A DNA stretch of 64,000 nucleotides. Origin: Eubacteriales bacterium. Lineage in GTDB: Bacteria > Bacillota > Clostridia > Acetivibrionales > JANLFN01. The position numbers and the translations under genes were made by a program. Each line of letters begins with the position of its first letter. The first letter of the stretch is position 1. The DNA is taken from assembly GCA_024655885.1 (NCBI GenBank), contig JANLFN010000003.1:30792-94791 (forward strand). Direction: 5' to 3'. Of this stretch, positions 39,341 to 56,998 are shown one piece after another. Under the pieces are notes generated by a model that made no database searches, had not been told where the DNA came from, and saw only the letters and a list, made by a program, of their open reading frames with translations.

Positions 39341-42300
39341 TCAATGTACCGGCTGGATATAGGTCAAATCATATACATTTCCGGTAATATCAATATCATT
39401 AACGGTATATGTAGCGCTCCTGTCCCCTTTAAACGCCGTAACGGTCATTGAGTACGGTTCCCGCAGCCTCACGTCGTCCCATGATTTGGAGCTCTGCGCC
39501 AATGGCAGGGTATATTCCCACACCGCATGGTTGTCCTTTATAGCGCTGTCCAGGCTGCAGGTTGAATCTTCGGGAAACAGTACATAGTACCCGAAGTAGT
39601 CTTTCCCATAGTCATAAGTGACTCCCTTGGCATCGGTATACTGCATGGCCTCCAGTTCCGGGCTGAACCTGATGACCACCCTGTCCGCCCCGCCGGTGGT
39701 CTGAACGTCCACTTTTACGGTTTCCAGGCTTAAGAACCTGTGAGGCTCATTGGCCAGCTGCTTCCCGAACATGTCCACCTGTCCCCTCCAGTGGTTCCAG
39801 TACCCCGTCAGTGTGACTCCCGTAATGGCCAAGGTGGTTATCTTATACGGCCCCCGGTACACATAACAGCTGTTGCCGGCGTTGTCAAAGGCCTCCATGT
39901 GCAGATACCAGGTGCCGTCGGTAGATAATGTGGTGGTAAACACCTTGCTGCTTGAGCTGCTCCAGGACGCAGGCCTTGCCGTGGATTGGCTCCAGGCGTA
40001 ATTGGTATGGTTAAAGTCATTTTCCCCCTGGTCGTCGGCGGTTACCACCACGCTGACAGGCCCGCTGCCGTCATAGGTTTTAGGGTCGCAGTCCACCACG
40101 GGCGGCAGGTTTGTTGTGTCTACATTTTTTACAGCCGGGGTGCTCCAGGCCCCTTCCAGGTCCTGTACCTCAAGGCTCAGCTGATAGACCCGGCTCCTTG
40201 CAAGGTACGTGGGCAAACCCGCCGTCCAGGCCGTATCCGTGGACAGCTTGTATTTCCACTTGCTGTTGGCAATCCCCCGGTCGGTCCGGGAAAGGTGGTC
40301 CCAGTCATAGGAGGTATTCACCGTTTCCAGGATGCAGTTAGACCCGCTTACCCGCAGTGAATAAGAAAAATCCGCAATGGGCCTCCGGTGGAAATAAATC
40401 GTAACCGGCGGCGATTCCGGGCTCCACAGCCTGTAATTATCGAACCGGTTATCGTCCTTCGGGTTGTCCCGCATCCTGCACTTGACCACATACTTCCCCA
40501 CCTTGGTAAAGACGTTGACCGGGCTTGCGATCCACTGCCCCGCAAAACCGGCCACCCCGGTATTGTTTTCAAACACCGTGGGATCATGGTCGAAATACCA
40601 CTGCTGCGCATAGACCGGGTCGGCCTCGAAGTCGTCATACACCGAATTATAGTCAATTTCGTCCTCCCCAAGGATGGCGTACAGCACGTTGGAGGCACCC
40701 CCGTTGAAAGGATTTTTGTATTTGCCGGCGATCCGGCTCAACACGGCGGCCAGATTTGTATACAGGCCACCCTGGGGAGTCTTGGCCGCAAAGCTCTCCA
40801 CCGTGATGTCCTGCACCCGGGCGTTGATGTACGGGGCGTCGAACATGAGCAGATAGTCAGAGGGGTCCAGGGCCATGCACAGGGCCAGGCCGCTGTTCTT
40901 CAAGGTGTCCCCGAAGGCGCCCGTCAGGTTCCCCAGGCCGAAGTAATTGCCGTAGCCTGTATTTGCCCTTAAGCCTGTTCCATCCGACACATAGATGAAG
41001 TACCTGTCCGAGCCGGGCCGCAGGCCGGTCAGCTTGCTTGCTACGGCTGCCTGGTCCAGCCCGTAGACGGTTACCGTATCCTTTGCAGCATCAAACATGG
41101 TTAATGCCGCAGGGGTCGCCGTGTTGGTGTTGTTTATGCGGCCTGTGGCATAGATGCTGCCGTCGGGCCGCAAGGTATAAAATGCATTATTATAAATAAC
41201 ATAAGAGGTATAGTCGGATATGGGATATAACACCGGGAGCAGATTACAGGCGGAAGTATTTCCGGACATATAATAGAAGTTGCCACCCCAGAAATAAATC
41301 CTGTTATTGGCGTCAAAGGCCCATCCGCCATAGCTGTTGAGGACCACCTTTTTTATTCCGTACAGCCCCCTTGCCTTGTAAAAGGAACTATAATCATAGA
41401 TGTCCTCGTTGTTCCCCTGGCACAGCTGCCCGTAGCTGTTGTCGGTGTTGTTCAGGTAAACGGAGCCATCGGCAGTTAGAACGGACATAAAACTACCGCT
41501 GTTGGATACGCTTGCCGCATTTTGTATCCCTAAAGACGTCCATGTACCTGTAATATTGGGCTTGTTGGCGTTGTCAAGGCCTTTTCCCGCTCCAATATAG
41601 TAAGCTGTCCCGTTGACGATGGCCATTGCGGTATATACCGATACGGATATGTCGCTGACGCCGCTCAAAACAAGCCTGGGGGACGTATAAGGAGTATCGT
41701 ACATGGTGTCGTAGTCGCTGCCAAGCGGAAACAGCCCTGATATGGACTGGCGGCCATAGTAGCTCCCAAGGTAGGGCGGGCTGCCCCAATAATAGACGGC
41801 ACCACTGTTGGTCAATACGAGGAACTCCCCGCTTCCCACGCCGATTTCCTTGATGCCTGTGATGGGCACCTGCCCTATATTGCCGTTGGCATCCCGAATC
41901 CAGAGCGTTCCATCCTTTTTGAGGAATAGGAATTGGCTGGTTCCTGCTGCTAGAACTTTCCCCACATTTGTGATAGGCAGTTGCGTCATGGTGCAGCTTT
42001 CATCCGTAATCCAGGCGGTCCCGTCGCTCTTGACAAACACGGTTTGATCTAATGTACCGGCCACACTGGCCAAATGGCTGATAAGGGTGGATTTGCGGGG
42101 CTCGGAAAGGGCAGGCCAGGTTCTTTGTTGCCAATAATAATAGGGTACCATAACACTGGTGTCCCCGAGGGCTAAACTATTCTTTATATTTGTTCCATAC
42201 CCCCACACCTCCCCGTTTGATTTTGCGATGAGGATGCCGCCTTGAGTGGTAAATAATTGGGCGTCCATGCATTGGCTTGTTCCGATGGCGGTTTTGCTGC

Positions 42301-43531
42301 CGCCGTCCACTAAAGCGTACTGCAGGTCATAGCCGTTGACCGCCAGGGAGGATTTCAGGCCGTCCAGCTGGGCCTTGTCGCTGTCCAGCTTTGCCCCCGT
42401 ATGGTCTGTGGCCACGATGAGGTCAACCTTGTTATTTGCCGGCCTGGTATTGTCGCCGATAATCTCGTTGAGGGCTTTTACCGTATCGCCCTGGCTGTAA
42501 AACTTGCCGTCCTGCACGCTGCCGATGAGCTGGGCCAGGGAAAGGTCCTGCTTGTATGAAGCGCTGTTGTAGGAAAGCCGGTAGCCGCTGTCTGAAAAAT
42601 TCATGCTCCTTATGGCGCCGGGAACCACGGCGTACACATGGGCGCTGTTGGCATTGGCAAAATTCAATACATTATCCCTTCTCAAATTTCCGAAGGCATA
42701 ATAATTCCCCCAGGAGCTGGTCAGGGTTTCGGTGTCGGTTCCATCGGAGATGAGCAAAACGTATTTCTCGCTGCCGGCTCTCAGGCTGACATTGTTCAGT
42801 TTGCTGAAATCAATGGAGTTCACCGCCGGGTACTTGACCACATCCTGGTAGTTCTCTGTTTTTGTCCAGGAGGTTTCAATGCCGTAGGAGACATCGTAAA
42901 TATTGTAACGGGTCAGGTAGCCTGTGAAATTTTCCGAATAGGTGGTCACGGATATGGTTACCTGTGTGGCCGCCCGGTTATTGGGATCGAAGAAATAGTA
43001 GTTGGTCCATTCATCCCTGCCGTAATTGGTCTGCCTGACGTGATTATCGGCTTCGCACTTCCAGGTAAGGCTTTTTGAAAATCCGGGCAGGGGATTAGGG
43101 ATGTCCTGCCACACCGATTCATAATCGCCATACTCCGTAACCCACCCGGTGACATCCACTTCCTCTCCGCCTGATTTAAAGATGCTGCCTTCCCTGTAGT
43201 ATTTCACCCAGGCCCTTCTCGCATACCGGTAATTGGTGACGGTTGTGGGCTGGGTCGCCGCCGCCGTACTGCTGTTGATGATCGTGTAGTTCAGGCTGAC
43301 CCGGTTCCCCGCCGCCTCGGTTTTGGCCGCAATCAGCTTGTTCTGCAGGTCGGTCAGCTTGGTCCCGGTATAGTCGGTGAGGATCACAAGGTCCACCTTT
43401 TTCCGCAGGATGGCGTCAAAATCTGCCGTAGGGGCGATGTTTTTTACCCGGCTGTCCGCATACACATTGGTATTTGCGATGAATAATACGGCAAGTATCA
43501 CTGCCATTTGCCGTTTTATCTTTTTTATCAT
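39341..43531 (-). CDS. 1396-aa secreted multidomain protein: two vWA-like modules, RCC1-like beta-propeller repeats, C-terminal Ig/PKD-like domains
   Basis: Signal peptide MIKKIKRQMAVILAVLFIANTNVYA. Duplicated motifs VDLVILTDYTGTKL / VDLIVATDHTGAKL and GSEKYVLLISDGT...WGNYYAFGNL / GSDRYFIYVSDGT...YGNYFGLGNL. RCC1-like strings (NGEVWGYGTN, SGAVYYWGS, DNSYGQLCQGN, NRIYFWGGN). No LPXTG motif. Confidence 0.7.
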   Translation of the reverse strand: MIKKIKRQMAVILAVLFIANTNVYADSRVKNIAPTADFDAILRKKVDLVILTDYTGTKLTDLQNKLIAAKTEAAGNRVSLNYTIINSSTAAATQPTTVTNYRYARRAWVKYYREGSIFKSGGEEVDVTGWVTEYGDYESVWQDIPNPLPGFSKSLTWKCEADNHVRQTNYGRDEWTNYYFFDPNNRAATQVTISVTTYSENFTGYLTRYNIYDVSYGIETSWTKTENYQDVVKYPAVNSIDFSKLNNVSLRAGSEKYVLLISDGTDTETLTSSWGNYYAFGNLRRDNVLNFANANSAHVYAVVPGAIRSMNFSDSGYRLSYNSASYKQDLSLAQLIGSVQDGKFYSQGDTVKALNEIIGDNTRPANNKVDLIVATDHTGAKLDSDKAQLDGLKSSLAVNGYDLQYALVDGGSKTAIGTSQCMDAQLFTTQGGILIAKSNGEVWGYGTNIKNSLALGDTSVMVPYYYWQQRTWPALSEPRKSTLISHLASVAGTLDQTVFVKSDGTAWITDESCTMTQLPITNVGKVLAAGTSQFLFLKKDGTLWIRDANGNIGQVPITGIKEIGVGSGEFLVLTNSGAVYYWGSPPYLGSYYGRQSISGLFPLGSDYDTMYDTPYTSPRLVLSGVSDISVSVYTAMAIVNGTAYYIGAGKGLDNANKPNITGTWTSLGIQNAASVSNSGSFMSVLTADGSVYLNNTDNSYGQLCQGNNEDIYDYSSFYKARGLYGIKKVVLNSYGGWAFDANNRIYFWGGNFYYMSGNTSACNLLPVLYPISDYTSYVIYNNAFYTLRPDGSIYATGRINNTNTATPAALTMFDAAKDTVTVYGLDQAAVASKLTGLRPGSDRYFIYVSDGTGLRANTGYGNYFGLGNLTGAFGDTLKNSGLALCMALDPSDYLLMFDAPYINARVQDITVESFAAKTPQGGLYTNLAAVLSRIAGKYKNPFNGGASNVLYAILGEDEIDYNSVYDDFEADPVYAQQWYFDHDPTVFENNTGVAGFAGQWIASPVNVFTKVGKYVVKCRMRDNPKDDNRFDNYRLWSPESPPVTIYFHRRPIADFSYSLRVSGSNCILETVNTSYDWDHLSRTDRGIANSKWKYKLSTDTAWTAGLPTYLARSRVYQLSLEVQDLEGAWSTPAVKNVDTTNLPPVVDCDPKTYDGSGPVSVVVTADDQGENDFNHTNYAWSQSTARPASWSSSSSKVFTTTLSTDGTWYLHMEAFDNAGNSCYVYRGPYKITTLAITGVTLTGYWNHWRGQVDMFGKQLANEPHRFLSLETVKVDVQTTGGADRVVIRFSPELEAMQYTDAKGVTYDYGKDYFGYYVLFPEDSTCSLDSAIKDNHAVWEYTLPLAQSSKSWDDVRLREPYSMTVTAFKGDRSATYTVNDIDITGNVYDLTYIQPVH

Positions 43532-43563
43532 GCCATATGATTCCTCCTTGCTGCTAAAGCAGC

Positions 43564-45936
43564 TTATTTCCAGAAGCTGCTCTTTTTATAGTCCTCTGCT
43601 GTCAAAAAATCCTTGATGGTATCGCTGTCCGGAATGGTTTCTTGTACTTCTATGCCTATTCTGTAAGTGCCTACACTATAAGTTTTTATGACATCTTCCA
43701 GGTTGTTGGCACTGCTCAAGGGCACGATGGCTTCATCGGAAAAATCGCCGTCGTTGTCGCTGTCGTACATGAAGAAGTATTTCCTGCTGCCGATGGCATC
43801 CCCGTCCGGGCTGTAGGACATGTCATAGATGGGGATGTTTGCGTAATGCCCACCGGCGTCCACCTGGTCCCGGATATTCTCCGTCGGGTAAGTAAAATCC
43901 ACCACAGGGGCTAAATCGGGCCGGATATCCAGCTCGACGGCTGCACTTCCCGTATAATTGGCCGTGTTGGTCATGTAGGCTGTTATTCTGATTTTTCCCG
44001 CCTTCTTGACGATAAATTCCTTTGTGGCGGTTCCGGTTAACCCCCCAAGGTATTTGATATCCCCGGTATTGCACCCGGACACGGCGGTAAATTCCCACCG
44101 GGTCTTTGAGGGGTCGATGGGATAATGGGCCGGGCTTGTCCCCGTGCAGGTGACGGTAATCTTCCGGTTTTCCTTCAAATGGCCTATATAGGCAATTCCC
44201 ACCGTCGGTATGGGAGGCAGGACAGTGATGGCCTTGGTGGTGCTGTCACTGGCTCCCTGGTCGTCCCAGACCTCCAACTGCTGGGTATAATCGCCCTCAT
44301 TGGGGAACCACACGGAGGTGCGGTAGCCTGACCTGGAGCTGGAACCGCTCACTCCGGACAGGGACCACTCGTAGCGTTCTATGGTCCCGTCCCCGTCAAA
44401 GGATTGGGAGCCGTCCAGCCACATGTCATCCCCCGCCATAACCGTGTCGTTGGCTCTTATGATGGCGGTCGGCGGCTTGTTGGACGGGGCCGGAGGCTCG
44501 GTGCTTCCCCCGCTGTTCTCGTCCTTAACCGCCACGCTTACACTGGCGGAGCCGGTAATATAGTTCCCTTTGTCATCCTCCGCCCTGGTTACGTAGTAGG
44601 TATAGGTGCCCTTCTCTGTTCTGGTATACGTTTTAAAAAATTGGGAGGCTGTTGTAATCACCGTATCCGGAAGAAGGGTCTGGGTTTCTCCGGAATCTGC
44701 CTGGAATTCTTCCCGCACTGTCCACTTGGTTATCTTTGTGGCCGCCTGGGACGGCTTGCAGAGGTCTTTAATGGTGTAGCTCTCCCCCGGGGGCACGGTA
44801 TATTTGTCCGCATCAATCCCCAGGGTGGGAGTGCCCGGAGGGGGTGTCTGGTCAAAGAAAAAATACACATAGATGGTGGGATGGGCCTCGGACAGGGTTA
44901 CCGTCCGGTTCTTCCCCGCAGCCCCCGTCACGGTGCCGGTGTAATCAGAGCCGTTTCCCGTATAGGAAAGCTTGCTTTCCTTGAAGTCATACCCGGTGAA
45001 GGTTTTACTTAAATTAACCGGCACGCTTTTGATATTCCCGGCGGTGATGGTGCCGGAATAGACCGTGGTGTTGGAGGCAAGATTGACCTTTGTGCCGTCG
45101 GTGTTGATCCCCCAATAGCAGGCGATGGCCTGTACCTGGGTGGTGCTGGCCTTGAGGGTTGCTTGCCACTTGGCTCGTGTTGCAAAATCGCTCAGTGCGC
45201 TCCCGGACCAGTTGATATCTGTATAAAGGTTATTGAGCAAACACGGGTATGTATTGGGGTAATTGTTGGGGCTGGTATGGGGTCCTCCATCCATGCACTG
45301 GTATGTCCCTACGCACTGGCCGCTGGAATTGAACACATTGACGTTGACCCAGCCACCAAAGGTGTGCCAGCTCCCGTCCGCCTTCCCGTATTGCATAAGC
45401 AGGTTGTCCACGTCCGCCTGGTTTGGGGTATCCCCCACATCCCCGATGTCAATTAAGGGAGAAATATCCACTCCATCAATGCTTTTTACGGTAATGGACA
45501 GGGAGGCATAGGTGTAGGAGGCGTTCGGGTCCGCCGCCGTATCGTGGTGCAGGTTGAGGGTGAACCAGTCGGACTGTACCCCGTCGGCCACGGTGTAGAA
45601 GGTATAGCCTCCCGACGGCATACTCATGATGTAGCTGGCAGAAAAGGTGGCGGTATTGGACTGCGTGGTCTGGGAAAGGGCGGTGGCGCCCCCGCTGCCC
45701 GCCTTCACCCACAGGGTCACACTGGAGGCCACTGTCCCCAGGTCCTGGGTAAAATAGAGCGTAACGCTGGAGCCGGTGTAGTTTACCGTCTGGTTGGTGG
45801 ATACCGCTTGAGGCCCGCTGCCGATGTCGCAGGTTACCGAAAGGGTTGTTGCCGCATAAGCCTTCATGGGAGGCAGGAGCAGCCCCCACACCATTGCTGC
45901 AACCATAAGGAAGGCGATGATTTTGTTTTTCCGCAT
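43564..45936 (-). CDS. ~790-aa secreted protein with PKD/Ig-like repeats
   Basis: Signal peptide MRKNKIIAFLMVAAMVWGLLLPPMKAYA. PKD-like PTAIIRANDTVMAGDDMWLDGSQSFDGDGTIERYEWSL. Start at 45936 chosen for the signal peptide and G-rich RBS; the ORF runs to 45963. Confidence 0.7.
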   Translation of the reverse strand: MRKNKIIAFLMVAAMVWGLLLPPMKAYAATTLSVTCDIGSGPQAVSTNQTVNYTGSSVTLYFTQDLGTVASSVTLWVKAGSGGATALSQTTQSNTATFSASYIMSMPSGGYTFYTVADGVQSDWFTLNLHHDTAADPNASYTYASLSITVKSIDGVDISPLIDIGDVGDTPNQADVDNLLMQYGKADGSWHTFGGWVNVNVFNSSGQCVGTYQCMDGGPHTSPNNYPNTYPCLLNNLYTDINWSGSALSDFATRAKWQATLKASTTQVQAIACYWGINTDGTKVNLASNTTVYSGTITAGNIKSVPVNLSKTFTGYDFKESKLSYTGNGSDYTGTVTGAAGKNRTVTLSEAHPTIYVYFFFDQTPPPGTPTLGIDADKYTVPPGESYTIKDLCKPSQAATKITKWTVREEFQADSGETQTLLPDTVITTASQFFKTYTRTEKGTYTYYVTRAEDDKGNYITGSASVSVAVKDENSGGSTEPPAPSNKPPTAIIRANDTVMAGDDMWLDGSQSFDGDGTIERYEWSLSGVSGSSSRSGYRTSVWFPNEGDYTQQLEVWDDQGASDSTTKAITVLPPIPTVGIAYIGHLKENRKITVTCTGTSPAHYPIDPSKTRWEFTAVSGCNTGDIKYLGGLTGTATKEFIVKKAGKIRITAYMTNTANYTGSAAVELDIRPDLAPVVDFTYPTENIRDQVDAGGHYANIPIYDMSYSPDGDAIGSRKYFFMYDSDNDGDFSDEAIVPLSSANNLEDVIKTYSVGTYRIGIEVQETIPDSDTIKDFLTAEDYKKSSFWK

Positions 45937-45955
45937 GAACCGATGCCCCCCATCC

Positions 45956-46849
45956 TTAACCAATGATTACCGTTACGCCGCCCGTGCCATCCCCAAAGCC
46001 TGCCGTGGGCTGCTCATAAAAAATCAATACCTTATACTCCCCGAACATTTTTCCATACACATCTTTGCTGCTGTCATCCACGGTCACGGCCAGCTTGTAG
46101 ATTTCTTCCCCGTATTCGGGATTCAGGAGCGTAAGGCAGGTTTTCAGGTACTGGTGGAAGGTTTCGGAGGTTTCATAAGTCGTGATTGTGCCTGTATTAG
46201 GTTTTTTCAAGCTGACTGATACTCTCATCGCTTCGGTGGGCGCAGGCTTTACGTTTTTGTCCGGTAATGTCAGATAGCAAGCATAGGGAGAAGTATTCCC
46301 CGCATACGTCAGGTTGGGGATGGCATCCCAGATGGCTTTGGCTATCGGATTGTCCGGGACCAGTTTCCCCTCCTCCTGCGGCACCTGCTCCACGGTGCCG
46401 TCGCTGCGGATGATGACGGTTTTGTTCCTGCTGTCCCAGGCCACCCCGGCCCCCAGGGTTTCGCTCACAAACCTCAAAGGCACGAAGGTCCTGTCGTCTT
46501 TGATGACCGCCCTGGTGTCAAAGGTCCTTTTGGTGTCGCCGGTGCCGGTATGAACAATGGCTTCACTCCGTCCGACCACCAAGGCGATCCGCAGCTCACC
46601 CCGGGTGATGGTGACCAGCTGGGTGCCGCCGTTCCAGTCCACTTCCGCGCCCAGGGCGGTGGACACAAACCGCAGGGGGACCATGGTCCTGCCGTCCTCA
46701 TTGATGAACGGCTGCGCGTCCGGGAAGTCGATGACGGCGTTGTCCACCCTGACGGTGATTTTTGACGGCTGATCCGCTGCCGTTGCAAGGCTGCCGCCAC
46801 ACAACAGCAGGGATATGGAAAGGACAATAGAGATTAATTTTTTTAACAT
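45956..46849 (-). CDS. secreted copper-amine-oxidase-N-domain protein
   Basis: Signal peptide MLKKLISIVLSISLLLCGGSLATA. Two GRTMVPLRFVSTALGAEVDW / DRTFVPLRFVSETLGAGVAW repeats. ATG at 46849 lies 8 nt after GGAGGG. Confidence 0.7.
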   Translation of the reverse strand: MLKKLISIVLSISLLLCGGSLATAADQPSKITVRVDNAVIDFPDAQPFINEDGRTMVPLRFVSTALGAEVDWNGGTQLVTITRGELRIALVVGRSEAIVHTGTGDTKRTFDTRAVIKDDRTFVPLRFVSETLGAGVAWDSRNKTVIIRSDGTVEQVPQEEGKLVPDNPIAKAIWDAIPNLTYAGNTSPYACYLTLPDKNVKPAPTEAMRVSVSLKKPNTGTITTYETSETFHQYLKTCLTLLNPEYGEEIYKLAVTVDDSSKDVYGKMFGEYKVLIFYEQPTAGFGDGTGGVTVIIG

Positions 46850-46884
46850 TTTGACCACCCTCCACTTTTAATTTTTCTATTTTT

Positions 46885-46957: not shown

Positions 46958-47704
46958 CTATTTCCACGGCAATGCCGAAACTTCCAGTCTTCCGTTGCTT
47001 TTGGCATAGGCCAGGAACTCATCCTGCTTGTCCGTCACTTCAAAGGATATGTACTTGGGCAGGGTTTCCCTGCCTGTATTCTTCAGCAGGCTGCCTTTTT
47101 CGTCGATCAGGGCGGCGATCCTTATATTGTTGAGCCGTTGAAGGCCGCCCTCCCTCAACGGGGCTACATCGCAAAAAGGGGGCTGGGCGTATGCCGCCGC
47201 CCCAATCCCCTCCTGCCCGCTCTCCTGAGCAGGGCCTTTGGAGGCCGCCTGCACCGGAGACAGCGGTTTTACCTTCTCATCCGGGACGAACAGGATGTCC
47301 ACCCTCTGTCCTGTGGCAAGCCACCATCCGTTCACCTGGTCTCCCTTGAACTCCACAGTAAAGAGCCTGTTATTTTTATCCTCCAGCTTGATTTCCTCCA
47401 TTTCGTCCGCCCCGCCGATCCTGCTGTTCAGAACCATTTCCCCTTCTTCTATGTCGGTTTTGGCTTTTTTCCCTTCCAGGTCCTTTATACTTTTCACCGA
47501 CAGCCTGTGGGCCAGGCTTACGTTAATTTTCTTTTCATAGAGCATATCCGCACTGATTTCCGTTTGTGCGGCAATCCTCTTCTTTGCGAACACAACGCTG
47601 ATTTCCGGTTCATACTTAGCCGCGCTTTTCACCACGGCTATCTCCACCCCCAGAAATGCTGCCGCCAATGCCAGGGTCACAAGGATAAGATTGATTCTTT
47701 TCAT
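46958..47704 (-). CDS. cpaB: Flp pilus assembly protein CpaB/RcpC-like (N-terminal TM plus SAF domain)
   Basis: MKRINLILVTLALAAAFLGV anchor, then a SAF-like segment (IAAQTEISADMLYEKKI...DIEEGEMVLNSRI). Tad-locus context. Confidence 0.6.
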   Translation of the reverse strand: MKRINLILVTLALAAAFLGVEIAVVKSAAKYEPEISVVFAKKRIAAQTEISADMLYEKKINVSLAHRLSVKSIKDLEGKKAKTDIEEGEMVLNSRIGGADEMEEIKLEDKNNRLFTVEFKGDQVNGWWLATGQRVDILFVPDEKVKPLSPVQAASKGPAQESGQEGIGAAAYAQPPFCDVAPLREGGLQRLNNIRIAALIDEKGSLLKNTGRETLPKYISFEVTDKQDEFLAYAKSNGRLEVSALPWK

Positions 47705-48748: not shown

Positions 48749-48979
48749 TCAGGAAGGGGGGAATATCCTGGTGGATATAGTGTTTGCCCACCAGCTGTTC
48801 AAGGCTGCAATGAGGGTGGTTACAAAGCTTCTAAGCTGGGGGATGGTGATAAAGGCAGCGATGATCAAAACCGCAGCCGTCCCTAGAATTTCATCCCGTC
48901 CGAAGCCGTCCTGCCTTTTAAGCGCGGCTTTTGCCGCTGAACCGCATTTTTTAACAAAGCCTGTCATTTTTTTTACCAT
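48749..48979 (-). CDS. flp: Flp-type prepilin candidate (76 aa)
   Basis: Basic leader MVKKMTGFVKKCGSAAKAALKRQDGFG, then RDEILGTAAVLIIAAFITIP hydrophobic helix. The size and the position after the two platform genes fit a Flp pilin. The classical G/xxxxEY motif is not conserved. Confidence 0.5.
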   Translation of the reverse strand: MVKKMTGFVKKCGSAAKAALKRQDGFGRDEILGTAAVLIIAAFITIPQLRSFVTTLIAALNSWWANTISTRIFPPS

Positions 48980-49063
48980 AGGATTCCTGCACTCCCCTTT
49001 CATTCTTTACTCTTTCAGAACCTTATCCAGGCCCATGTTTGCCTGTGCTTGCCCATGCTTGCC

Positions 49064-49996
49064 TCAATTCACAAATATCTTCCCCACGGCATCGGCCACA
49101 TCCTTGATCAGCGGTACGGTTATCATAATCACGGTGATGGATGCAAATATGAAAACCGAAAGGGTCCCCCTCCATTTGCAGCTTTCAGTCTCCGCCTGGA
49201 TGTAGTTGAAATACTTATTGAACATGTACTGCTCCTGCCTGGCCAGCAGTTCCCGGTTATCCCCGGTTTCAACGCCCTGTTTCAACGCAACGCAGAGGGT
49301 TTCCGCCTCCTGCAGGTCAAAGTTGGACCGGAACTCCTCCAGCGCCCGGTCAATGTCCAGGGTGAGCTCATACCTTGCCGCCAGCTGGATCAGGATTTCC
49401 TTGAGTTTTTTGTCCTCAATGACCATGTAAACGGTTTTTATCGCATCCGTAGGTTTAATGCCGGAGCTTATCTGGTTATGCAGGTATTTATAGATCTTAT
49501 ACACATGCCTGCCGAATTTCATGGACATCTCCCTTTTTCCTCTGTAAACCACGTATTCCACCGTAAAAAAGATCATCAGGGAAACCGCCACCGAATAGCG
49601 GACATGGGGATAGTTAAGGACGTAGACCAGGATGAATGCGAGCATGGGAAAAACGTACTTGAAAAAAAGATAGATTGTGGCCGAGTGTTCCCCGCTGTAG
49701 CCCGACTTCACCAATTTTTCCCTGGTTTCCGCATAGAATCCCCAGCGGCCGGTTTTTCTCGCATATTCACCGATGAGCTCCATTACGGAATGGACGGCTC
49801 TCCTGTAAAGCGAGTAATTTTTGTTCCTTCCCGCCATAGCCTCACCCAGCCGTGGGTTGGTATAGACACTCAGCTTCACAAGAAGGGCATGGGCAAGGAT
49901 GAGGTTTAAAGCAGCCATAGCCAGGCAGAACAGTTTATGGCCGGATGCAAAAACAGCGATATCTCTCATTTGTAGTTTTATCCCTCCTCCCATCAA
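49064..49996 (-). CDS. tadC: type II secretion system F-family platform protein (TadC-like)
   Basis: 310-aa polytopic protein with a cytoplasmic helical domain between TM segments. Start overlaps the stop of the preceding gene (ATGA). Confidence 0.6.
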   Translation of the reverse strand: MMGGGIKLQMRDIAVFASGHKLFCLAMAALNLILAHALLVKLSVYTNPRLGEAMAGRNKNYSLYRRAVHSVMELIGEYARKTGRWGFYAETREKLVKSGYSGEHSATIYLFFKYVFPMLAFILVYVLNYPHVRYSVAVSLMIFFTVEYVVYRGKREMSMKFGRHVYKIYKYLHNQISSGIKPTDAIKTVYMVIEDKKLKEILIQLAARYELTLDIDRALEEFRSNFDLQEAETLCVALKQGVETGDNRELLARQEQYMFNKYFNYIQAETESCKWRGTLSVFIFASITVIMITVPLIKDVADAVGKIFVN

Positions 49997-50958
49997 TGTT
50001 TGAACCTTGTAATGCCAAAGGAAAAGTATACCCCTCCCGCAAAGAGGAGGGTAAAAAACGCAAGCAGCAATTTTCCTTCCGTCGTTGCCAGATAATACTG
50101 CTCAACCCTGGGGTTGAATTTAAGAAAAAAATAGCCTATGATCAAAACCAAGAACATCAACACAAATATCAGCAGCCTGTCCTTGTAGGTGGATATCTTG
50201 CGCCTGTCATACTCCTCCTCCAGTTTGTAAAACTGGGCCTCCATGTTTGTAAGCAGCTTTGTAATATCCCCGCGGAACTTAATATTCTGTTTGATATTGA
50301 TAACGAAATCCTTGAACTGGGCGTTATCCACTTTCATCTGCAAAAGGTCCAGGGCCTCCAGAGGGTTTATTCCGCATCTGACCTGGATGCACATGTCCCG
50401 GATGAAGGTGCGGAGAGGCTCGCCGATGCCGGATTCGGTGGATCTTTCAAAGGCATAGAATATATCCTCCTTGACGGTGCACCACCGGTTTAGGACCGAA
50501 ATAAACTCCGCCAGCTTTCTTCTTATTTTTTCCGAGTTATACCTGCCCAGGAGGTCAAGCAGGAAGGCGGGGACGAGGGAAAACATCCCGCAGATTACGG
50601 CGGTGGACGGCACAAAGTACAAAATCCTGTAAACAGGCGGAAAAGTGAGTATAAAAACCAAAACCGAAACCAGCAGCAGGACGTAAAAATTCATGAAAGG
50701 GATATACTGCCTGATGTTCGATTTGTCAATCAGCGTTAATTCCAGTCTTTCAACCAGGCTCAGTTTTACCGAAATCGTCCTCGTGTACTTTCGTGCTTCC
50801 CGTTGAAGCCTCCGGTTCCTGTAGTCCCCGTTCAGCCTGTCCAGGCCCAGGGATAAAGCCTTTTTAATGCTAATGCGGGATGCAAGGGTGTAGGCCAGGA
50901 GGATTGTAAAAGCCGCAAGCAGCACCGAATTCACAATCAGGAGCAGTGAATACTTCAA
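49993..50958 (-). CDS. tadB: type II secretion system F-family platform protein (TadB-like)
   Basis: 321 aa, N-terminal TM, central soluble domain (...GINPLEALDLL...), C-terminal TM pair. Overlaps the ATPase gene stop. Confidence 0.6.
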   Translation of the reverse strand: MKYSLLLIVNSVLLAAFTILLAYTLASRISIKKALSLGLDRLNGDYRNRRLQREARKYTRTISVKLSLVERLELTLIDKSNIRQYIPFMNFYVLLLVSVLVFILTFPPVYRILYFVPSTAVICGMFSLVPAFLLDLLGRYNSEKIRRKLAEFISVLNRWCTVKEDIFYAFERSTESGIGEPLRTFIRDMCIQVRCGINPLEALDLLQMKVDNAQFKDFVINIKQNIKFRGDITKLLTNMEAQFYKLEEEYDRRKISTYKDRLLIFVLMFLVLIIGYFFLKFNPRVEQYYLATTEGKLLLAFFTLLFAGGVYFSFGITRFKH

Positions 50959-52247
50959 AGCTGTCCCCTCCTTTGAAGCTGCTGTTTCAGCCGGCTGCCC
51001 ACATCCCCGTATTTTTTGAAGGTGCCTGTGATGAACCCTCCGCTGTCTTCCTTTTGAATTTCAAAGCCGAACAGCCTGTTGTATTTGTAGCTGTCACTGC
51101 CGCCGTCATACCCCAGCACCTCGATTACATCCACCACCTTGAAGCTTTTGAGATAAAAAATGACGTCGATGCTCTTGGCCATCATTTCCTTGATGGTCTT
51201 TTCACTTTCTCCGGTGTTGGAGCCTTTGCTCAGGGTGAGAAGCCTTGCAAAGGCATCTTCCGCGCTTTCCGCATGAGTGGTGGCGATGCTCCTGTGTCCT
51301 GTAAAGGACGCCTTAATGTATTCCCATGCCTCATCGCCCACAATTTCACCAATACAATAGGTGTCAAGGGACATGGTAAGCCCGTCCCTGACAAGGTCCC
51401 TCAGGGTAATATGCCTTCCGCCCTCGTACTGCTTTTTGATTCTCTGCTCTATGCAGTAGGGCTTGTCAGGGTATATTTCGGCATCCGACTCCACAATTAA
51501 AACCCTTTCCATTTCGGGAAGCTGGTTTACAAAAGCCCTCATAAGGGTAGTCTTTCCCGCCGCACCCTTTCCGCAGAACAACACCGTTGCATCGGTGCAG
51601 GCCAGCTTTCTTATGAAGCCTTCCATTTCTTCATTCATCATCCCCAGCATGGTAAGGTCGGATAGGGTATAGCTGGCCTTCCTGTGTTTCCTTATGCTGA
51701 TGGAGGGCCCCGATATATTCCTCGGCCTTATTGCCACATTGATCCTCAGCCGGTTCTTCTCATCGGTCACCCTGCAGTGGCTGTCGTTTTCATTCAGTAT
51801 TCCTCCGTTGCGGATGGCCACCAGCTTGCAGTAAACATCGAATATCTGTTCATTTCCGAAATTCACGGGGATAATTTCTCTGATTCCATTCCTTTTTATG
51901 ACAAACTCGTTGTACCGGGTCCCGTCGATATCGCTGATGCTTTCATCGTCTATGTACGGCTGCAGGGCGCCATAGCCGAACATGTAATCGAATACCTTAT
52001 TGATCAGGTCCTCCCGGGAAAGGCCGTAGTGGTACTTGTGCCTGTCCATGTCCTTTATGACCGCCGTCTCCAGCACCGCCCTTTCTACGGCGTTATTGGC
52101 CACATCGGCCACAAGCCCGGGGGATTCCTTTAGAATGTCGTAGGTGATGCTGGAGATGAGAATATTAATGTCGCTGTTGTGTTTGTCTGTCTCCTGGAAA
52201 TTTGCACCTGTGATCAGGGGACTATGAAGCGTACTTACCACGGGCAT
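50955..52247 (-). CDS. tadA: CpaF/TadA-type secretion ATPase (T2SSE/VirB11 superfamily)
   Basis: Walker A GKGAAGKTT, Walker B-like DTYCIGEIVGDEA, His box GHRSIATTHA. 430 aa. Confidence 0.8.
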   Translation of the reverse strand: MPVVSTLHSPLITGANFQETDKHNSDINILISSITYDILKESPGLVADVANNAVERAVLETAVIKDMDRHKYHYGLSREDLINKVFDYMFGYGALQPYIDDESISDIDGTRYNEFVIKRNGIREIIPVNFGNEQIFDVYCKLVAIRNGGILNENDSHCRVTDEKNRLRINVAIRPRNISGPSISIRKHRKASYTLSDLTMLGMMNEEMEGFIRKLACTDATVLFCGKGAAGKTTLMRAFVNQLPEMERVLIVESDAEIYPDKPYCIEQRIKKQYEGGRHITLRDLVRDGLTMSLDTYCIGEIVGDEAWEYIKASFTGHRSIATTHAESAEDAFARLLTLSKGSNTGESEKTIKEMMAKSIDVIFYLKSFKVVDVIEVLGYDGGSDSYKYNRLFGFEIQKEDSGGFITGTFKKYGDVGSRLKQQLQRRGQL

Positions 52248-53970
52248 TCCTTTTTAACCTCCTTCCGGCTTTGATCCGTGCCAGCCGTAGAAATGACCTG
52301 CACAAGGCCTTCAAGCCGGCGGACCACCTCTTTAATTTTTGTATGGGGGATTGGGGGGCCAGTATGTCAAACCTGGACAGGATGCCCATATAATCATTCA
52401 AGGTTTTGCCGTCCATGCGCTTCACAAAGGAAGCTTTAAGGTTCCTGCACCTTGCGCGCTTGTCGGAGTACCTGACAGAACCCAGAAAATTCTGCTCGGT
52501 TATTTCCATAATCACCTTGCGTCCCAGGTTGAAGGCGCCATTGTACTCATAGGCCACATATTTCGTTTTGTTTAAAGGCATATTCTGTTTTTCTTTTAAA
52601 AACATGAGATACCGGTTGAATTCCCTGAACTTGCCCATATCGGCCCTCAGGGCAATAATGTTGTAATCGGATTTGACCAGGGAAACCAGGGTATAGGAAT
52701 CATAGATGGACCTGTTCACCAGCAGTATGGTCACGTCAAAGCTCTGGTATGCCTTCTCTATAAGCTTTATCAGGCTGCTGTCGCTAAAATACTCGTAGTT
52801 TTCCAGGCTGTAGCTGCCCGTCAATACGTGCAGATTCTTCACATCCTTGCGCACAACAGACGCCTCTGCCAGTATTTCAGCGGTCAGCAGGTTTTTGTCT
52901 ATAGAATCCATTACAATGTTTAAACCGCTTTTAGGGATGATATGGTCGCTTATAATGTTTTGGGGATGCCTGGGAAGATTTAAGTGGATGTCGCAGGACG
53001 GCGCCAGAAGGTCCAGGTCAATCAGGAATATCTCCAGGTTGGTCAGCCTGGCGGCCAAATAGGCAAATTCGCACCCGAATTCAGCACTGTCCCACATGGT
53101 CAGGACCAGCTTTTTAAAGGAAACCCTCCTGCCGGAGCCCTCTTTTCTCAAGCCGGTTGGGCTCTCTTCACCCACAACGGCATTTCCGCCCTGCCCTCCT
53201 ATGCTCTCTATATCCTGCAAGACCTCCGCCGCCGTCTGGTACCTCTCCTCCGGATTGAATCTGGTGCACTTTTCTATGATGGCCTCTATTTCCGCAGACA
53301 GGCTCTTGTCGAAATACCGCACCGGCTTTATCTCATAAGGCGGCTCATTGGGGCTCTTTCCCGTCAAGAGGTGGTGCAGGGTAATTCCAAGGCTGTAAAT
53401 GTCGGTTACGGGATTTGTCTGGCCTATTCCGTACTGCTCGGGCGCCGCATACCCCCGGGTGCCTATGTAGATGGTATCGCTGTCCGAGCCGGCTTTATAC
53501 TCCCTGGCAATGCCGAAGTCAATGAGCTTTATGGAGCCGTCGCCGGTGAGAATGATGTTGGAGGGCTTCAGGTCGCGGTAAATGATGGGGTTGGGCTTGA
53601 AATTGTGGAGGTAGGTCAAGACCCCGCATATCTGCTTCGCCCAGCTTACCACCTGATCCTCCGGGAATTTCCCCGCCGAGGCCAGCTCCTTGTCAAGGGA
53701 GCTGCCCTCGATATAGTCTTCGATGATATAAATGCTGCGGCTGTCCTCCACAACGTCAAAAACTCTTGGAAGGGCCGGATGGCTGAGCTTCTTCAGAATA
53801 TTGGGCTCTACCAAAAGGTCCATCCCCGGGCCCGGTTTTTTGCCTATCTCCTTAATGGACCACAGGGTGCCCAGCTTCACATTTTCAGCCAGGTAAACCC
53901 TGCTCATCCCTCCCTGCCCGAGAACTTTCAGTATCCTGTACTTTCCTTCAAACAGCTGTCCCTGCCGCAT
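52222..53970 (-). CDS. Hanks-type Ser/Thr protein kinase fused to a TadZ/CpaE-like (MinD/ParA-fold) domain lacking the P-loop
   Basis: Kinase motifs GQGGMSRVY, WSIKEI, YRDLKPSN, DFGIA, GTRGYAAPE. The C-terminal half LVLTMWDSAEFGCEFAYLAARLTNLEIFLIDLDLL follows the TadZ pattern hhhhh-KGGxGKT-helix-hhhhDhD, but the Walker A is replaced by DSAEFGC. Confidence 0.7.
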   Translation of the reverse strand: MRQGQLFEGKYRILKVLGQGGMSRVYLAENVKLGTLWSIKEIGKKPGPGMDLLVEPNILKKLSHPALPRVFDVVEDSRSIYIIEDYIEGSSLDKELASAGKFPEDQVVSWAKQICGVLTYLHNFKPNPIIYRDLKPSNIILTGDGSIKLIDFGIAREYKAGSDSDTIYIGTRGYAAPEQYGIGQTNPVTDIYSLGITLHHLLTGKSPNEPPYEIKPVRYFDKSLSAEIEAIIEKCTRFNPEERYQTAAEVLQDIESIGGQGGNAVVGEESPTGLRKEGSGRRVSFKKLVLTMWDSAEFGCEFAYLAARLTNLEIFLIDLDLLAPSCDIHLNLPRHPQNIISDHIIPKSGLNIVMDSIDKNLLTAEILAEASVVRKDVKNLHVLTGSYSLENYEYFSDSSLIKLIEKAYQSFDVTILLVNRSIYDSYTLVSLVKSDYNIIALRADMGKFREFNRYLMFLKEKQNMPLNKTKYVAYEYNGAFNLGRKVIMEITEQNFLGSVRYSDKRARCRNLKASFVKRMDGKTLNDYMGILSRFDILAPQSPIQKLKRWSAGLKALCRSFLRLARIKAGRRLKRNARGKYAS

Positions 53971-54045: not shown

Positions 54046-54074
54046 ATTATAGCACAGGATTTTGCAGATTTCTA
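54046..54074 (-). promoter_or_regulatory. candidate sigma-A promoter of the Tad-like locus
   Basis: Minus strand reads TAGAAA - 17 nt - TGcTATAAT (extended -10). An AT-rich leader with an 8-bp inverted repeat AAATTACA...TGTAATTT follows. Confidence 0.4.
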
Positions 54075-54916: not shown

Positions 54917-54971
54917 GCTGAAAGCGCCTCAGCCTCTCAGCTCTTCATCCCGCGCTGAAAGCGCCTCAGCC
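54917..54971. repeat. 18-nt direct repeat GCTGAAAGCGCCTCAGCC (two copies) with CTCAGC motifs
   Basis: Copies at 54917-54934 and 54954-54971. The second copy overlaps the last codons and stop of the radical-SAM gene. CCTCAGCCTCTCAGCTC lies between them. Confidence 0.8.
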
Positions 54972-55868
54972 GTCAACGCCTTCCAGGTTGAAATCAGGGA
55001 TATAGCCTTCCTCTGCCGAATCCCTCTCCTGGATATAGCCGTTTTCAAAACCCAGCTTTAAAAAGTGGTTTACCACCCTGTCATATTCCCTCCTGGTAAT
55101 CCTCCTGTTGATCTTCGGGTGGCAATCCGCCTTATAATAGGGGGTGTACTGGCTCATAAGGCTTACAAGAACATGTCCGGGCAGGTTTGCCTTGATCCAG
55201 TCCAAAATTTTAATGGACTCTTCCGCCAGCCCGGGCAGAATAAGATGTCGGACAATCAAGCCCTTTTGCATCAGCCCTTCCCCGTCGAAAACCGGCGTTC
55301 CGGTCTGTCTGCACATTTCAAGCACGGCTTGGGCGGCCACCTGGAAATAGTCCGGCGCTCCCGAATACTCCCGGGAGGTACCGGGGCTGAAATATTTCAG
55401 GTCGGGCAGGTAAACCTGGACCCGGCCTTCCATTTGCTTTAAGGACTCCAAGCTGTCATACCCGTTTGAATTGTATACCACCGGAATGCTCAACTCCTTT
55501 GCGGCGTCAAGGCTTTCCCTTATTTGCACCGTAAAATGGGAGGGGTTCACCAGATTGATGTTGTGTGCCCCTTTTTGCTGGAGGGACAAATAAATGCGGC
55601 TTAAAGCCTCAATGGAAATTTTCCTTCCGAAATTCTCCTGGCTTATCGTATAGTTCTGGCAGTAAACGCACTTTAAATTGCAGCCCGAAAAAAACACCGC
55701 GCCCGATCCCCTGCTTCCGCTGATGCAGGGCTCCTCCCACATGTGCAGGAAAGCCTTGGCCACCACCGGGAGGCTGCCCATGCCGCAAAAGCCTTTCCCG
55801 GCAGCTCTGTCTATATTGCATGCTCTCGGGCACATGCCGCATTTTGATGCCTTATTTTCCATACCCAT
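54966..55868 (-). CDS. radical SAM protein, PflX-like (homologue of pyruvate formate-lyase activating enzymes)
   Basis: CNLKCVYCQN (CxxxCxxC) plus an N-terminal CGMCPRAC. 300 aa. Confidence 0.75.
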   Translation of the reverse strand: MGMENKASKCGMCPRACNIDRAAGKGFCGMGSLPVVAKAFLHMWEEPCISGSRGSGAVFFSGCNLKCVYCQNYTISQENFGRKISIEALSRIYLSLQQKGAHNINLVNPSHFTVQIRESLDAAKELSIPVVYNSNGYDSLESLKQMEGRVQVYLPDLKYFSPGTSREYSGAPDYFQVAAQAVLEMCRQTGTPVFDGEGLMQKGLIVRHLILPGLAEESIKILDWIKANLPGHVLVSLMSQYTPYYKADCHPKINRRITRREYDRVVNHFLKLGFENGYIQERDSAEEGYIPDFNLEGVDG

Positions 55869-55960: not shown

Positions 55961-56440
55961 TCACTTTTTCTTGTCAATAAAATAGGACGGCATCTGCACC
56001 GGGGCCGGCCTATAAGCCGAAAGAACCTTTTTTCCCTGGCTGATTTTCCCGATCTCCTCTCCAAAGTGCTTTAAAAGCTTTTTGGCTTTATTGCTGTTTT
56101 CAGTTTCAATCCTGCTTATTTCCCTGATTAATTCGACAATCTGTTGTACCTGGTCCTGCAGCTCCTTAACTCCTTTGATCCCACGGTTTTCCACCTGGTC
56201 CAGCCGTTCAACCCCCAGCCCCTGCTTGAACCTCTGAAAATATTCGTTGAATTCATGGTCAAGCCGGTTTATCTCATCAATTTTTTCCTGTTTCCGGGAT
56301 ATCAGCCCTTCCAGGTTATTGATGCTGTCTTCGGTAATGTTTTCGGATTGCTCCTGCGTCAACAGCAACATTTCCTGAAGGAGTTTATACTTTTTCATTG
56401 AAGCTTCCTGCAGCCTTTGGATATACTCATCCGGTACCAT
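55961..56440 (-). CDS. FliT/FlgN-like flagellar export chaperone candidate
   Basis: 159 aa, all-helical and Gln/Glu-rich (YKLLQEMLLLTQEQSENI...). Occupies the position after fliS, as fliT does in Bacillus. Confidence 0.45.
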   Translation of the reverse strand: MVPDEYIQRLQEASMKKYKLLQEMLLLTQEQSENITEDSINNLEGLISRKQEKIDEINRLDHEFNEYFQRFKQGLGVERLDQVENRGIKGVKELQDQVQQIVELIREISRIETENSNKAKKLLKHFGEEIGKISQGKKVLSAYRPAPVQMPSYFIDKKK

Positions 56441-56500
56441 CCCTTAATCCTCCGTTGACCCGTCCCGCAGCGGGTATCTCCTTTTCACGGGCTTTGCTCT

Positions 56501-56530
56501 ATTATACCGCCGGTCCGTTATCCTTGTCAA
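56501..56530 (-). promoter_or_regulatory. consensus sigma-A promoter between fliS and the fliT-like gene
   Basis: Minus strand reads TTGACA - 18 nt - TATAAT, about 60 nt upstream of the ATG at 56440 (GGAGG RBS). Confidence 0.55.
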
Positions 56531-56533
56531 AGC

Positions 56534-56944
56534 CTATTTGGCAATAAGTTTGGACTTCGCTGCATCTCTTTTGGCCGTTTTCATAGCCTGTGTCCAGGCA
56601 TCACGGAGTTCCCTGGAAAAATCCAGCACCTCATCCAGTATCGCCCTGTCTTTTTTTACATTCGCCTCCATCAGCCTCCTGTACATATAGTCATACAGAA
56701 GCATGAGATTGTTGGATACCTCATATTTCATATCCAGTGTGGATTGAAACTCTCTCAGGATGTCCTCCGCTCTGATTATACTCTCATTGGCATTTTCCAT
56801 ATTTCCTTCATCAACCGCCTGCTGGGCCTGCATAATAAACTTAACCAAGCCGTTGTACAGCATAAGGGTAAGTTCTTCCGGGCTTGCAGTAAAAATGGAA
56901 TTCTCTTTATATTGGTTATAGGCTTTATTTATGGCCATAAGCAT
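56534..56944 (-). CDS. fliS: flagellar export chaperone FliS
   Basis: YNQYKENSIFTASPEELTLMLYNGLVKFI and 136 aa. Confidence 0.9.
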   Translation of the reverse strand: MLMAINKAYNQYKENSIFTASPEELTLMLYNGLVKFIMQAQQAVDEGNMENANESIIRAEDILREFQSTLDMKYEVSNNLMLLYDYMYRRLMEANVKKDRAILDEVLDFSRELRDAWTQAMKTAKRDAAKSKLIAK

Positions 56945-56998
56945 TCCTCCGCAGTAATATTGGTATTCGCAAAAATAAGTTCAATATTGCATTCCCTG

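Follow-up and report, generated by a model that had tools for sequence, protein, structure and literature searches.

A Hanks-type kinase fused to a P-loop-less ParA/MinD-like domain in the tadZ position of a Clostridia Tad-type pilus locus

This study analyzed a 64-kb stretch of DNA from a Eubacteriales bacterium (contig JANLFN010000003.1 of assembly GCA_024655885.1; hereafter the window) and a gene within it, given the working name kinZ, in which one reading frame directly upstream of tadA encodes a Hanks-type Ser/Thr kinase and a ParA/MinD-like domain that lacks the P-loop. The findings suggest, with a probability that we place at approximately 0.6, that the kinZ product is the first component, equivalent to TadZ, of a type IVc (Tad-type) pilus machine of monoderm Clostridia, in which a nucleotide-free scaffold tethers a competent kinase to the Tad motor. 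The architecture is conserved and widespread in Clostridia. A kinase combined with a P-loop-less TadZ-like domain was not described in the full-text literature searched (subscription journals lay outside its coverage); this agrees with the original prediction for this gene, which had been made from the sequence alone and recognized no such architecture among described Tad systems.

TadZ is FleN-like, a P-loop protein whose Walker A motif is atypical; it binds ATP, exhibits low hydrolysis, and serves as a hub, recruiting Tad components (PMC6668835). Its Walker A-like consensus is K/RGGxGxS/T, and its N-terminal atypical receiver domain, a module that is exchangeable, is thought to mediate localization (bioRxiv 10.64898/2026.07.08.737194). 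The E. rectale two-domain protein 3fkq appears in the reference list of PMC11217815 as a published TadZ.

kinZ is a single gene encoding a kinase and a scaffold domain

The features of kinZ are as follows (aa, amino acids; ORF, open reading frame).

54046..54074, minus strand: promoter-like site TAGAAA-17-TGcTATAAT within the AT-rich spacer that lies upstream of kinZ (consensus scan, pattern match only)
52222..53970, minus strand: kinZ (working name), a 582-aa ORF comprising a Hanks kinase, a linker, a P-loop-less ParA/MinD-like domain, and a basic tail (ORF list and translation)
53215..53940, minus strand: Hanks-type Ser/Thr kinase domain, aa 11-252 (Pfam PF00069, E=1.3e-46)
53110..53214, minus strand: inter-domain linker, aa 253-287, with no conserved columns in a 42-species alignment
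52372..53109, minus strand: putative ParA/MinD-fold pseudo-ATPase core, aa 288-533 (AlphaFold2 model and Foldseek)
53059..53094, minus strand: former Walker A position, W293-DSAEFGCEFA-Y304, standing where [KR]GGxGx[ST] would be
52999..53025, minus strand: retained switch-I-like motif LIDLDLLAP (D318, D320; D39 and D41 of the fragment, invariant)
52714..52728, minus strand: Walker B equivalent ILLVN, with N419 in place of the ParA/MinD Asp (N140 of the fragment, invariant in the close family)
52225..52359, minus strand: basic C-terminal tail, a predicted helix, aa 538-582, net charge +14 (model helix H263-302)
52222..52247, minus strand: 26-nt overlap of the kinZ stop and the tadA start (tadA ATG at 52247; TAG ends at 52222)

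The original prediction had placed the gene at these coordinates, which were correct; the translation and the ORF list add that it lies on the minus strand. The start codon is an ATG preceded by a Shine-Dalgarno sequence (GGGGG), and the stop-to-stop frame is longer by only 5 codons upstream. The promoter-like site agrees with the consensus at 10 of 12 positions and carries an extended -10 TG, as judged by pattern matching only.

A pattern-based scan with one genome for each GTDB species revealed that the KinZ C-terminal domain is encoded at 55 loci. In approximately 44 cases, that frame also encodes, without interruption, an N-terminal kinase domain that is 56-66% identical to that of the window, and uninterrupted kinase fusions were also found in 53 protein clusters (50% identity). 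The carriers of the fusion are all metagenome-assembled genomes (MAGs) of Clostridia, labeled Acetivibrionales, Hungateiclostridiaceae, Oscillospiraceae, Clostridiaceae, or "Bacillota." No cultured organism with a kinase-type locus appeared among the 55. An identical 582-aa KinZ with the same neighbors is encoded by the NCBI MAG GCA_029907485.1 and by a JGI metagenome contig. Members of the family are named "serine/threonine protein kinase," "cellulose biosynthesis protein BcsQ," or "hypothetical protein" in their sources, and no Pfam or NCBIfam model exists for the scaffold-domain family.

These counts bear on whether the long ORF could be an assembly or frameshift artefact that joined a kinase gene to a separate tadZ-like gene. 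Errors in MAGs do affect kinZ, as illustrated by the orthologue of a Ruminiclostridium MAG (P0014 / L023; L004:8752-10469), which is called as 481 aa and stops within the scaffold domain; the tblastn similarity runs on past aa 481 to the end of that domain, and the interruption is probably a frameshift or an assembly error. Nevertheless, the occurrence of the identical ORF in two independent assemblies and of intact single-ORF fusions in approximately 44 species-level genomes and 53 clusters leaves an artefact a negligible chance. We rejected it and regard the single long ORF as real.

The kinase domain retains a complete catalytic set

Residues 11-252 of KinZ matched PF00069 (Pkinase) at 159.5 bits, compared with a cut-off of 31.7 bits. 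The catalytic motifs quoted in the original prediction are present, namely G18xG20G21, K40 in WSIKEI, Y131-R132-D133-L-K135-P-S-N138, D151FG, and GT171RGYAAPE. In the 42-species alignment, G18, G20, and G21 of the Gly-rich loop, V25, the beta3 Lys K40, the alphaC Glu E55, Y131-R132-D133, K135, and N138 of the catalytic loop, D151-F-G, the activation-loop residues T166 and T171, and A175-A-P-E are all invariant. Invariance of these catalytic residues and activation-loop threonines amid an overall identity of 56-66% is what selection on catalysis would be expected to produce. AGC kinases normally carry Tyr where HRD has His (YRDLKPEN in PKA), and the Tyr of KinZ is neither a defect nor an argument against activity. 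RD kinases with conserved activation-loop threonines are usually switched on by autophosphorylation. Judged from its complete catalytic set, the kinase domain of KinZ in the window's clade looks active.

The best NCBIfam match of the kinase region is a PknB/Stk1-type model (E=9e-52), and KinZ shares with the Gram-positive Hanks kinases PknB, PrkC, and Stk1 the RD type and the activation-loop threonines. Unlike these kinases, KinZ lacks a transmembrane segment, PASTA domains, and any other sensor domain, and its whole-protein score against the Stk1/PknB PASTA-kinase model (177 bits) is far below the 450-bit cut-off. The C-terminal domain is the sole other module of the protein, and the length of the linker to it differs among orthologues (motif offset, 291-454 aa).

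The C-terminal domain adopts a ParA/MinD-like fold and has lost its ATP site

The C-terminal segment opens with LVLTMWDSAEFGCEFAYLAARLTNLEIFLIDLDLLAP, exactly as quoted in the original prediction, which had related it to the ParA/MinD fold. An AlphaFold2 model of the domain built with 15 homologues exhibited a mean predicted local distance difference test score (pLDDT) of 80.9 and a predicted template modeling score of 0.72. When the model was compared with the PDB by using Foldseek, the top 50 matches were all of the ParA/MinD class (E 4.4e-10 to 2e-6; probability 1.0), with template modeling (TM) scores of up to 0.73 on target length; they included Borrelia ParA-like proteins, ParA2, MinD, the Chlorobium ParA-family protein 3ea0, Soj, McdA, FleN, BcsQ, and HypB. 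At the level of structure, the assignment is clear.

Sequence profiles gave weaker results. The sole Pfam match of the domain was AAA_31 (E=0.069). A PDB profile search with a family alignment that included the N-terminal columns returned no match, and with the trimmed alignment the best match was the pSM19035 ParA-like delta protein 2oze (E=0.011), with MinD at E=0.21, neither of which was significant. Several relatives matched AAA_31/CbiA at 12-27 bits, mostly below threshold, and one reached the threshold at 27.1 bits. Because the sequence-profile searches yielded no significant match, the fold assignment rests on the AlphaFold2 model and Foldseek; the expectation of ParA/MinD similarity was borne out by structure and not by profiles. 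For comparison at the residue level, E. coli MinD served both for profile alignment with hhalign and for residue counting. The family profile aligned with MinD weakly (201 columns, E=0.013, probability 3%), pairing LIDLDLL with VIDFDIG of switch I, NLHVLTG with NLYILPA, and SDYNIIA with ADEAIIT.

The original prediction had stated that the P-loop was lost and IDLDL was retained, and both statements held. The former Walker A segment WDSAEFGCE has neither the Lys nor the Ser/Thr of the motif, and in the model strand 1 (KLVLTMW) passes to helix 1 (AEFGCEFAYLAARL) through a 2-residue turn with a pLDDT of >90. The end of strand 1 is separated from the first Asp of DxD by 25 residues, compared with 29 in E. 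coli MinD; this spacing, shorter by 4 residues, indicates that the P-loop was shortened rather than merely substituted. The switch-I-like motif LIDLDLLAP is kept and aligns with VIDFDIGLRNLD of MinD. A second loss at the ATP site, absent from the original prediction, is the replacement of the Walker B Asp by Asn: N419 aligns with the D of FIVCDSP in MinD, and in distant members this column is mostly N, or S/G.

With the P-loop and the Walker B Asp both gone, ATP-dependent dimerization and the ATPase cycle cannot operate in the KinZ domain. A short P-loop region without Lys or Ser/Thr and an Asn for the Walker B Asp leave room for a static scaffold or adaptor only, and a nucleotide-free pseudo-ATPase scaffold or adaptor is the best reading of the modeled domain. 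A different view would make the domain a switch that binds nucleotide or another small ligand non-canonically through the invariant residues of WDNxEFGCE, DxD, and YEY, with the ligand controlling the kinase or pilus assembly. No ParA/MinD member is known to bind nucleotide without a P-loop, and the 2-residue turn in a high-confidence region of the model, together with N419, makes such a switch quite unlikely, even though D318 and D320 are invariant, as are many of the polar residues that surround the former nucleotide site, and canonical TadZ is already atypical in its Walker A, with ATP bound and low hydrolysis (PMC6668835).

The basic tail that follows the core is net positive in 47 of the 47 family proteins examined (mean, +6). 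It recalls the membrane-targeting helices of MinD/FlhG or the DNA-binding surfaces of ParA. The sequence that encodes it also contains the ribosome-binding site and the start of tadA.

Loss of the P-loop extends to the whole family, which carries different N-terminal modules

An exhaustive HMMER search with the domain profile covered 1.84 billion cluster representatives and identified 364 clusters (50% identity) at E<=1e-3 and 274 at E<=1e-10. The motif [KR]GGxGx[ST] occurred in 0 of the 150 best of the 364 clusters, and the pair of a deviant Walker A and a Walker B Asp was absent from KinZ and from all 150 of these representatives. The family consensus at the former Walker A position is W[DG]NxEF[GA]CE[LF]AY, and distant members read xGNxEhAxELA. 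The far more numerous canonical ParA, MinD, and CpaE proteins were not pulled in, which indicates that the family is sharply separated at the sequence level. Loss of the P-loop is a property of the whole family, non-kinase members included, and extends beyond the fusion. The N-termini of 159 family proteins were distributed as follows.

Kinase: 53 of 159 proteins
Receiver-like: at least 20 of 159 proteins
Other extensions, 60-273 aa: 30 of 159 proteins
Short or fragmentary: 56 of 159 proteins

The model of a receiver-like member, P0001 (pLDDT 85.6), comprises a (beta-alpha)5 domain in residues 1-116 followed by a P-loop-less ParA-like domain. The latter matched MinD with TM scores of 0.74-0.79, and the two domains together aligned with E. 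rectale TadZ 3fkq over 430 columns (E=4.5e-8; Foldseek). Kinase and receiver-like forms appeared interspersed in a rough neighbor-joining tree built from the scaffold domain, and parsimony counted at least 9 changes. This method is too crude to sustain a claim of repeated domain swaps, and we dropped that claim.

A sister clade of kinase fusions (P0075, P0081, P0092, P0112, P0127, P0055, P0065, and P0143; L061-L063) has neither the Gly-rich loop nor the alphaC Glu. Its catalytic loop reads HLDxKPxN (non-RD) instead of [HY]RD, and its DFG is often DFD, DFT, or DFA. By these motifs, the clade is probably a pseudokinase-scaffold version of KinZ. The persistence of its degenerate kinase directly upstream of tadA is the chief argument for the proposal that the kinase domain is a structural protein-interaction module that replaced the receiver-like domain, with phosphotransfer irrelevant or vestigial. 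The type VII secretion system (T7SS) provides a precedent in the T7SSb component EssB, which is a cytoplasmic pseudokinase (PMC11217815). In the window's clade, however, neither the catalytic residues nor the two activation-loop threonines vary among 42 species, although identity is 56-66%, and for that clade we regard a purely structural role as unlikely.

kinZ occupies the tadZ slot of a Tad gene block

The genes that follow kinZ are listed below.

50955..52247, minus strand: tadA/cpaF-type secretion ATPase, 430 aa (Pfam T2SSE, E=5e-26)
49993-50958, minus strand: tadB-like platform gene (Pfam T2SSF)
49064-49996, minus strand: tadC-like platform gene (Pfam T2SSF)
48749..49003, minus strand: candidate Flp-type prepilin, 84 aa, ...QDG/FGRDEILGTAAVLIIAAFI..., in which Gly is followed by Glu at +5 and then by a hydrophobic helix
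47734..48791, minus strand: two small genes (144-aa and 183-aa ORFs) that may encode minor pilins or TadE-like proteins (weak DUF4320 match only)
46958..47704, minus strand: cpaB/rcpC-like SAF-domain protein (Pfam SAF, E=8e-9; TIGR03177 pilus_cpaB, E=2e-13, under cut-off)

The gene order and the base-level reading revealed that kinZ lies directly upstream of tadA, in the usual slot of tadZ, and is joined to it by translational overlap, as originally predicted; the overlap of 26 nt was confirmed base by base. The ribosome-binding site GGAAGGAGG precedes the tadA ATG inside the tail-coding sequence of kinZ. Gene calls with the kinZ-tadA overlap recur in L001 and L002, and the N-terminus of TadA (Met-Pro) is conserved across loci.

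The best NCBIfam models for TadA were a TadA-family model and VirB11, both under cut-off. The two platform genes scored 26.6 and 28.2 bits against the T2SSF cut-off of 25.2 bits, and the window therefore contains the combination of a TadA-type ATPase and two T2SSF-type platform proteins by which Tad systems are recognized. The candidate prepilin exhibits G/FGRDE followed by a hydrophobic helix; it has no profile match, and its position is kept in most loci. The 144-aa and 183-aa genes stand in the same order in kinase-type and receiver-type loci. The window and nearly every related locus with enough sequence show the order kinZ-tadA-tadB-tadC-pilin-x-x-cpaB, and the Tad gene block is the sole constant partner of the scaffold family.

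A canonical TadZ encoded nearby would have offered another candidate for the slot. Apart from TadA, neither the 64-kb window nor the 55 loci, taken with flanks of 10 kb, contained an ORF with [KR]GGxGx[ST]; the possibility was rejected, and the earlier expectation that no tadZ with an intact P-loop is present at the locus was upheld. A six-frame motif search, the only test applied, did not find the A24 prepilin peptidase signature GxGD[..]K in the 64-kb window, which suggests that the peptidase for the Flp-like pilin is encoded elsewhere or is too divergent for so crude a motif test.

Downstream of cpaB, three large secreted or surface proteins are encoded on the same strand (39341-46858, minus strand): a 300-aa protein with a copper-amine-oxidase-N domain, a 799-aa PKD-domain protein, and a 1396-aa protein with a WD40_RLD (RCC1-like) match. 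Similar PKD, SLH, or Y_Y_Y giants follow receiver-type loci (L003 and L064). These large surface proteins may be pilus-associated adhesins or cargo.

The Tad block is found in different genomic contexts

In the window, the genes upstream of kinZ and one candidate glycosylation region are arranged as follows.

54966-55868, minus strand: PflA/NrdG-like radical S-adenosylmethionine (SAM) gene
55961..60038, minus strand: late flagellar genes flgN, fliS, fliD, and flaG (Pfam families on L001 gene calls)
60097-64000, minus strand: nonulosonic-acid-type sugar cluster upstream of flaG, comprising an epimerase/dehydratase, a DegT-type aminotransferase, an acetyltransferase, and NeuB (NeuB in L001)

Of the 44 kinase-type loci, 35 have flaG-fliD-fliS-flgN upstream on the same strand; among the 27 whose upstream sequence exceeds 6 kb, the count is 24. 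The radical SAM gene often follows flgN in the window's clade; it and the HAD neighbor gave generic activase/phosphatase matches only, with no tie to the Tad system. The sugar cluster looks like a flagellin glycosylation island. A terminator-like hairpin was identified 3' of flgN, and a separate promoter-like site lies 5' of kinZ. These two elements indicate that the flagellar linkage is one of synteny and that a single operon is not obvious. The synteny may reflect co-regulation of the flagellum and the pilus, or it may merely be inherited. We had considered it as a strong functional link and downgraded it, given that the sister clade and the receiver-type loci have other flanks.

The sister kinase-fusion clade follows an A24 prepilin peptidase gene and tig-clpP-clpX, with tadA directly downstream. 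Receiver-type members stand at the end of Tcp-like Gram-positive conjugation modules and are followed by tadA-tadB-tadC. At receiver-type and stand-alone loci (L003:1-16423, L005:1-16407, L017, and L064:1-14661), tadA-tadB-tadC-pilin-x-x-cpaB lies at the 3' end of conjugation modules, which contain FtsK/TcpA-like, TcpC, TcpE, VirB4-like AAA_10/TraG P-loop, PrgI-family, and M23 peptidase genes. The plasmid pVpro of the cultured Vallitalea pronyensis FatNI3 encodes a stand-alone 292-aa scaffold ("hypothetical protein") adjoining a separate protein with a weak receiver match. A Tad-like pilus may be part of some conjugative elements of Firmicutes. The 1.7-Mb contig that encodes P0001 is labeled "Calditrichales bacterium MX18-03" and contains SLH-domain proteins and a Tcp-type Gram-positive conjugation module, which suggests that the label may be wrong.

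These contexts bear on the view that KinZ is a general signaling kinase, for example in flagellar or motility control, that happens to stand beside tad, with a C-terminal domain that dimerizes or localizes independently of the pilus machine. The flagellar synteny at 24 of 27 loci with sufficient upstream sequence would fit this view, as would the fact that the MinD-like proteins FlhG/FleN regulate flagella and have structures among the fold matches. The flagellar neighborhood is nevertheless that of one clade, and the tig-clpP-clpX and conjugative-element contexts likewise run into tadA-tadB-tadC. The hairpin and the separate promoter-like site speak against a single flagellar operon, and the kinZ stop overlaps tadA. 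We therefore consider a general kinase very unlikely.

Comparison with known systems

KinZ resembles TadZ/CpaE in the position of its gene directly upstream of tadA/cpaF in a tad locus and in its ParA/MinD-fold domain; the non-kinase members of the family add the (beta-alpha)5 N-terminal domain and the alignment of both domains to 3fkq. KinZ differs from TadZ/CpaE in that it has no [KR]GGxGx[ST], carries Asn for the Walker B Asp, and has a Hanks kinase where the receiver-like domain sits. The canonical CpaE of an alphaproteobacterial plasmid reads ARGGVGATT at Walker A. MinD, ParA, Soj, and FleN (FlhG) provided the best structural matches, with family TM scores of up to 0.79 on target length. 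The family keeps the switch-I DxD, NLxhLxG, and the strand order of this class, and its basic C-terminal helix may correspond to that of MinD/FlhG, whereas the ATP-binding loop and the catalytic Asp are missing in KinZ.

The Bdellovibrio protein TadZA is similar in that a TadZ module has been recombined, the receiver-like domain has been dispensed with, and TadZ and TadA are closely coupled (bioRxiv 10.64898/2026.07.08.737194). In TadZA, however, the TadZ part keeps a Walker A-like motif and is fused to TadA, and no kinase is present, whereas in KinZ the fusion partner is a kinase and the tie to TadA is a translational overlap only.

Control of envelope and filament machines by Thr phosphorylation is exemplified by PpkA-Fha1 of the type VI secretion system and by the archaellum regulators ArnC/ArnD. 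The T7SSc/d kinases TscD/TsdD offer a further likeness, as Hanks kinases encoded with a secretion machine that gate its assembly or expression (PMC11217815). The kinases of these systems are separate proteins, mostly membrane-bound, and act through FHA-domain partners; in contrast, the kinase of KinZ is covalently joined to its scaffold, and the locus has no FHA protein or phosphatase.

Discussion

We propose that in the window's clade a soluble, catalytically competent RD-type Hanks kinase with two invariant activation-loop threonines has replaced the receiver domain of a TadZ-like protein. The scaffold domain, possibly together with the basic helical tail, would dock KinZ on the TadA-TadB/C platform, on its cytoplasmic side, or on the membrane. 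Local concentration at the platform could then activate the kinase by trans-autophosphorylation, and the kinase would phosphorylate Tad components or KinZ itself and thereby gate assembly of the pilus. The fusion suggests that pilus assembly may be controlled by phosphorylation.

Several observations weigh against this proposal. The sister clade keeps the fusion with a degenerate kinase, which implies that the kinase fold can serve there without normal catalysis. Profile scans of the locus identified no gene for an FHA-domain protein or a PP2C phosphatase, and a comparison of TadA between kinase-type and receiver-type loci revealed no distinctive conserved Ser/Thr as a phospho-acceptor. In addition, alignment of the family profile with one alphaproteobacterial CpaE by using hhalign yielded no detectable similarity (E=0.23); canonical CpaE itself scored only 19-27 bits on the AAA_31/CbiA models, no better than the scaffold family. 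Because kinship with CpaE is undetectable in sequence, the term TadZ-like rests on position, fold, and architecture, and KinZ is called a TadZ-equivalent rather than a proven TadZ orthologue.

A broader picture, which we offer tentatively as a possibility, is that of a Tad machine with a built-in phospho-switch. A ParA-like scaffold would hold an active kinase at TadA, where the motor, the platform, or the pilin would be phosphorylated, and coordination with the flagellum encoded upstream would amount to a motile-to-adherent switch. Different N-terminal modules (receiver-like, kinase, or pseudokinase) would then be exchanged as inputs, and the pilus would thereby suit a chromosomal, a flagellum-linked, or a conjugative-element setting.

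It is not yet settled how TadZ/CpaE positions and initiates the assembly of Tad pili, and no role is evident for its weak ATPase. The scaffold family reveals that the ATP site can vanish altogether while the N-terminal input swaps among receiver-like, seemingly active kinase, and degenerate kinase forms. Such a pseudo-ATPase offers a clean way to learn which functions of TadZ depend on nucleotide. Should the kinase act on the machine, Ser/Thr phosphorylation would be built into the assembly hub of a type IV filament, for which we know of no earlier case, and KinZ would offer a handle on the control of adhesion in anaerobic Clostridia.

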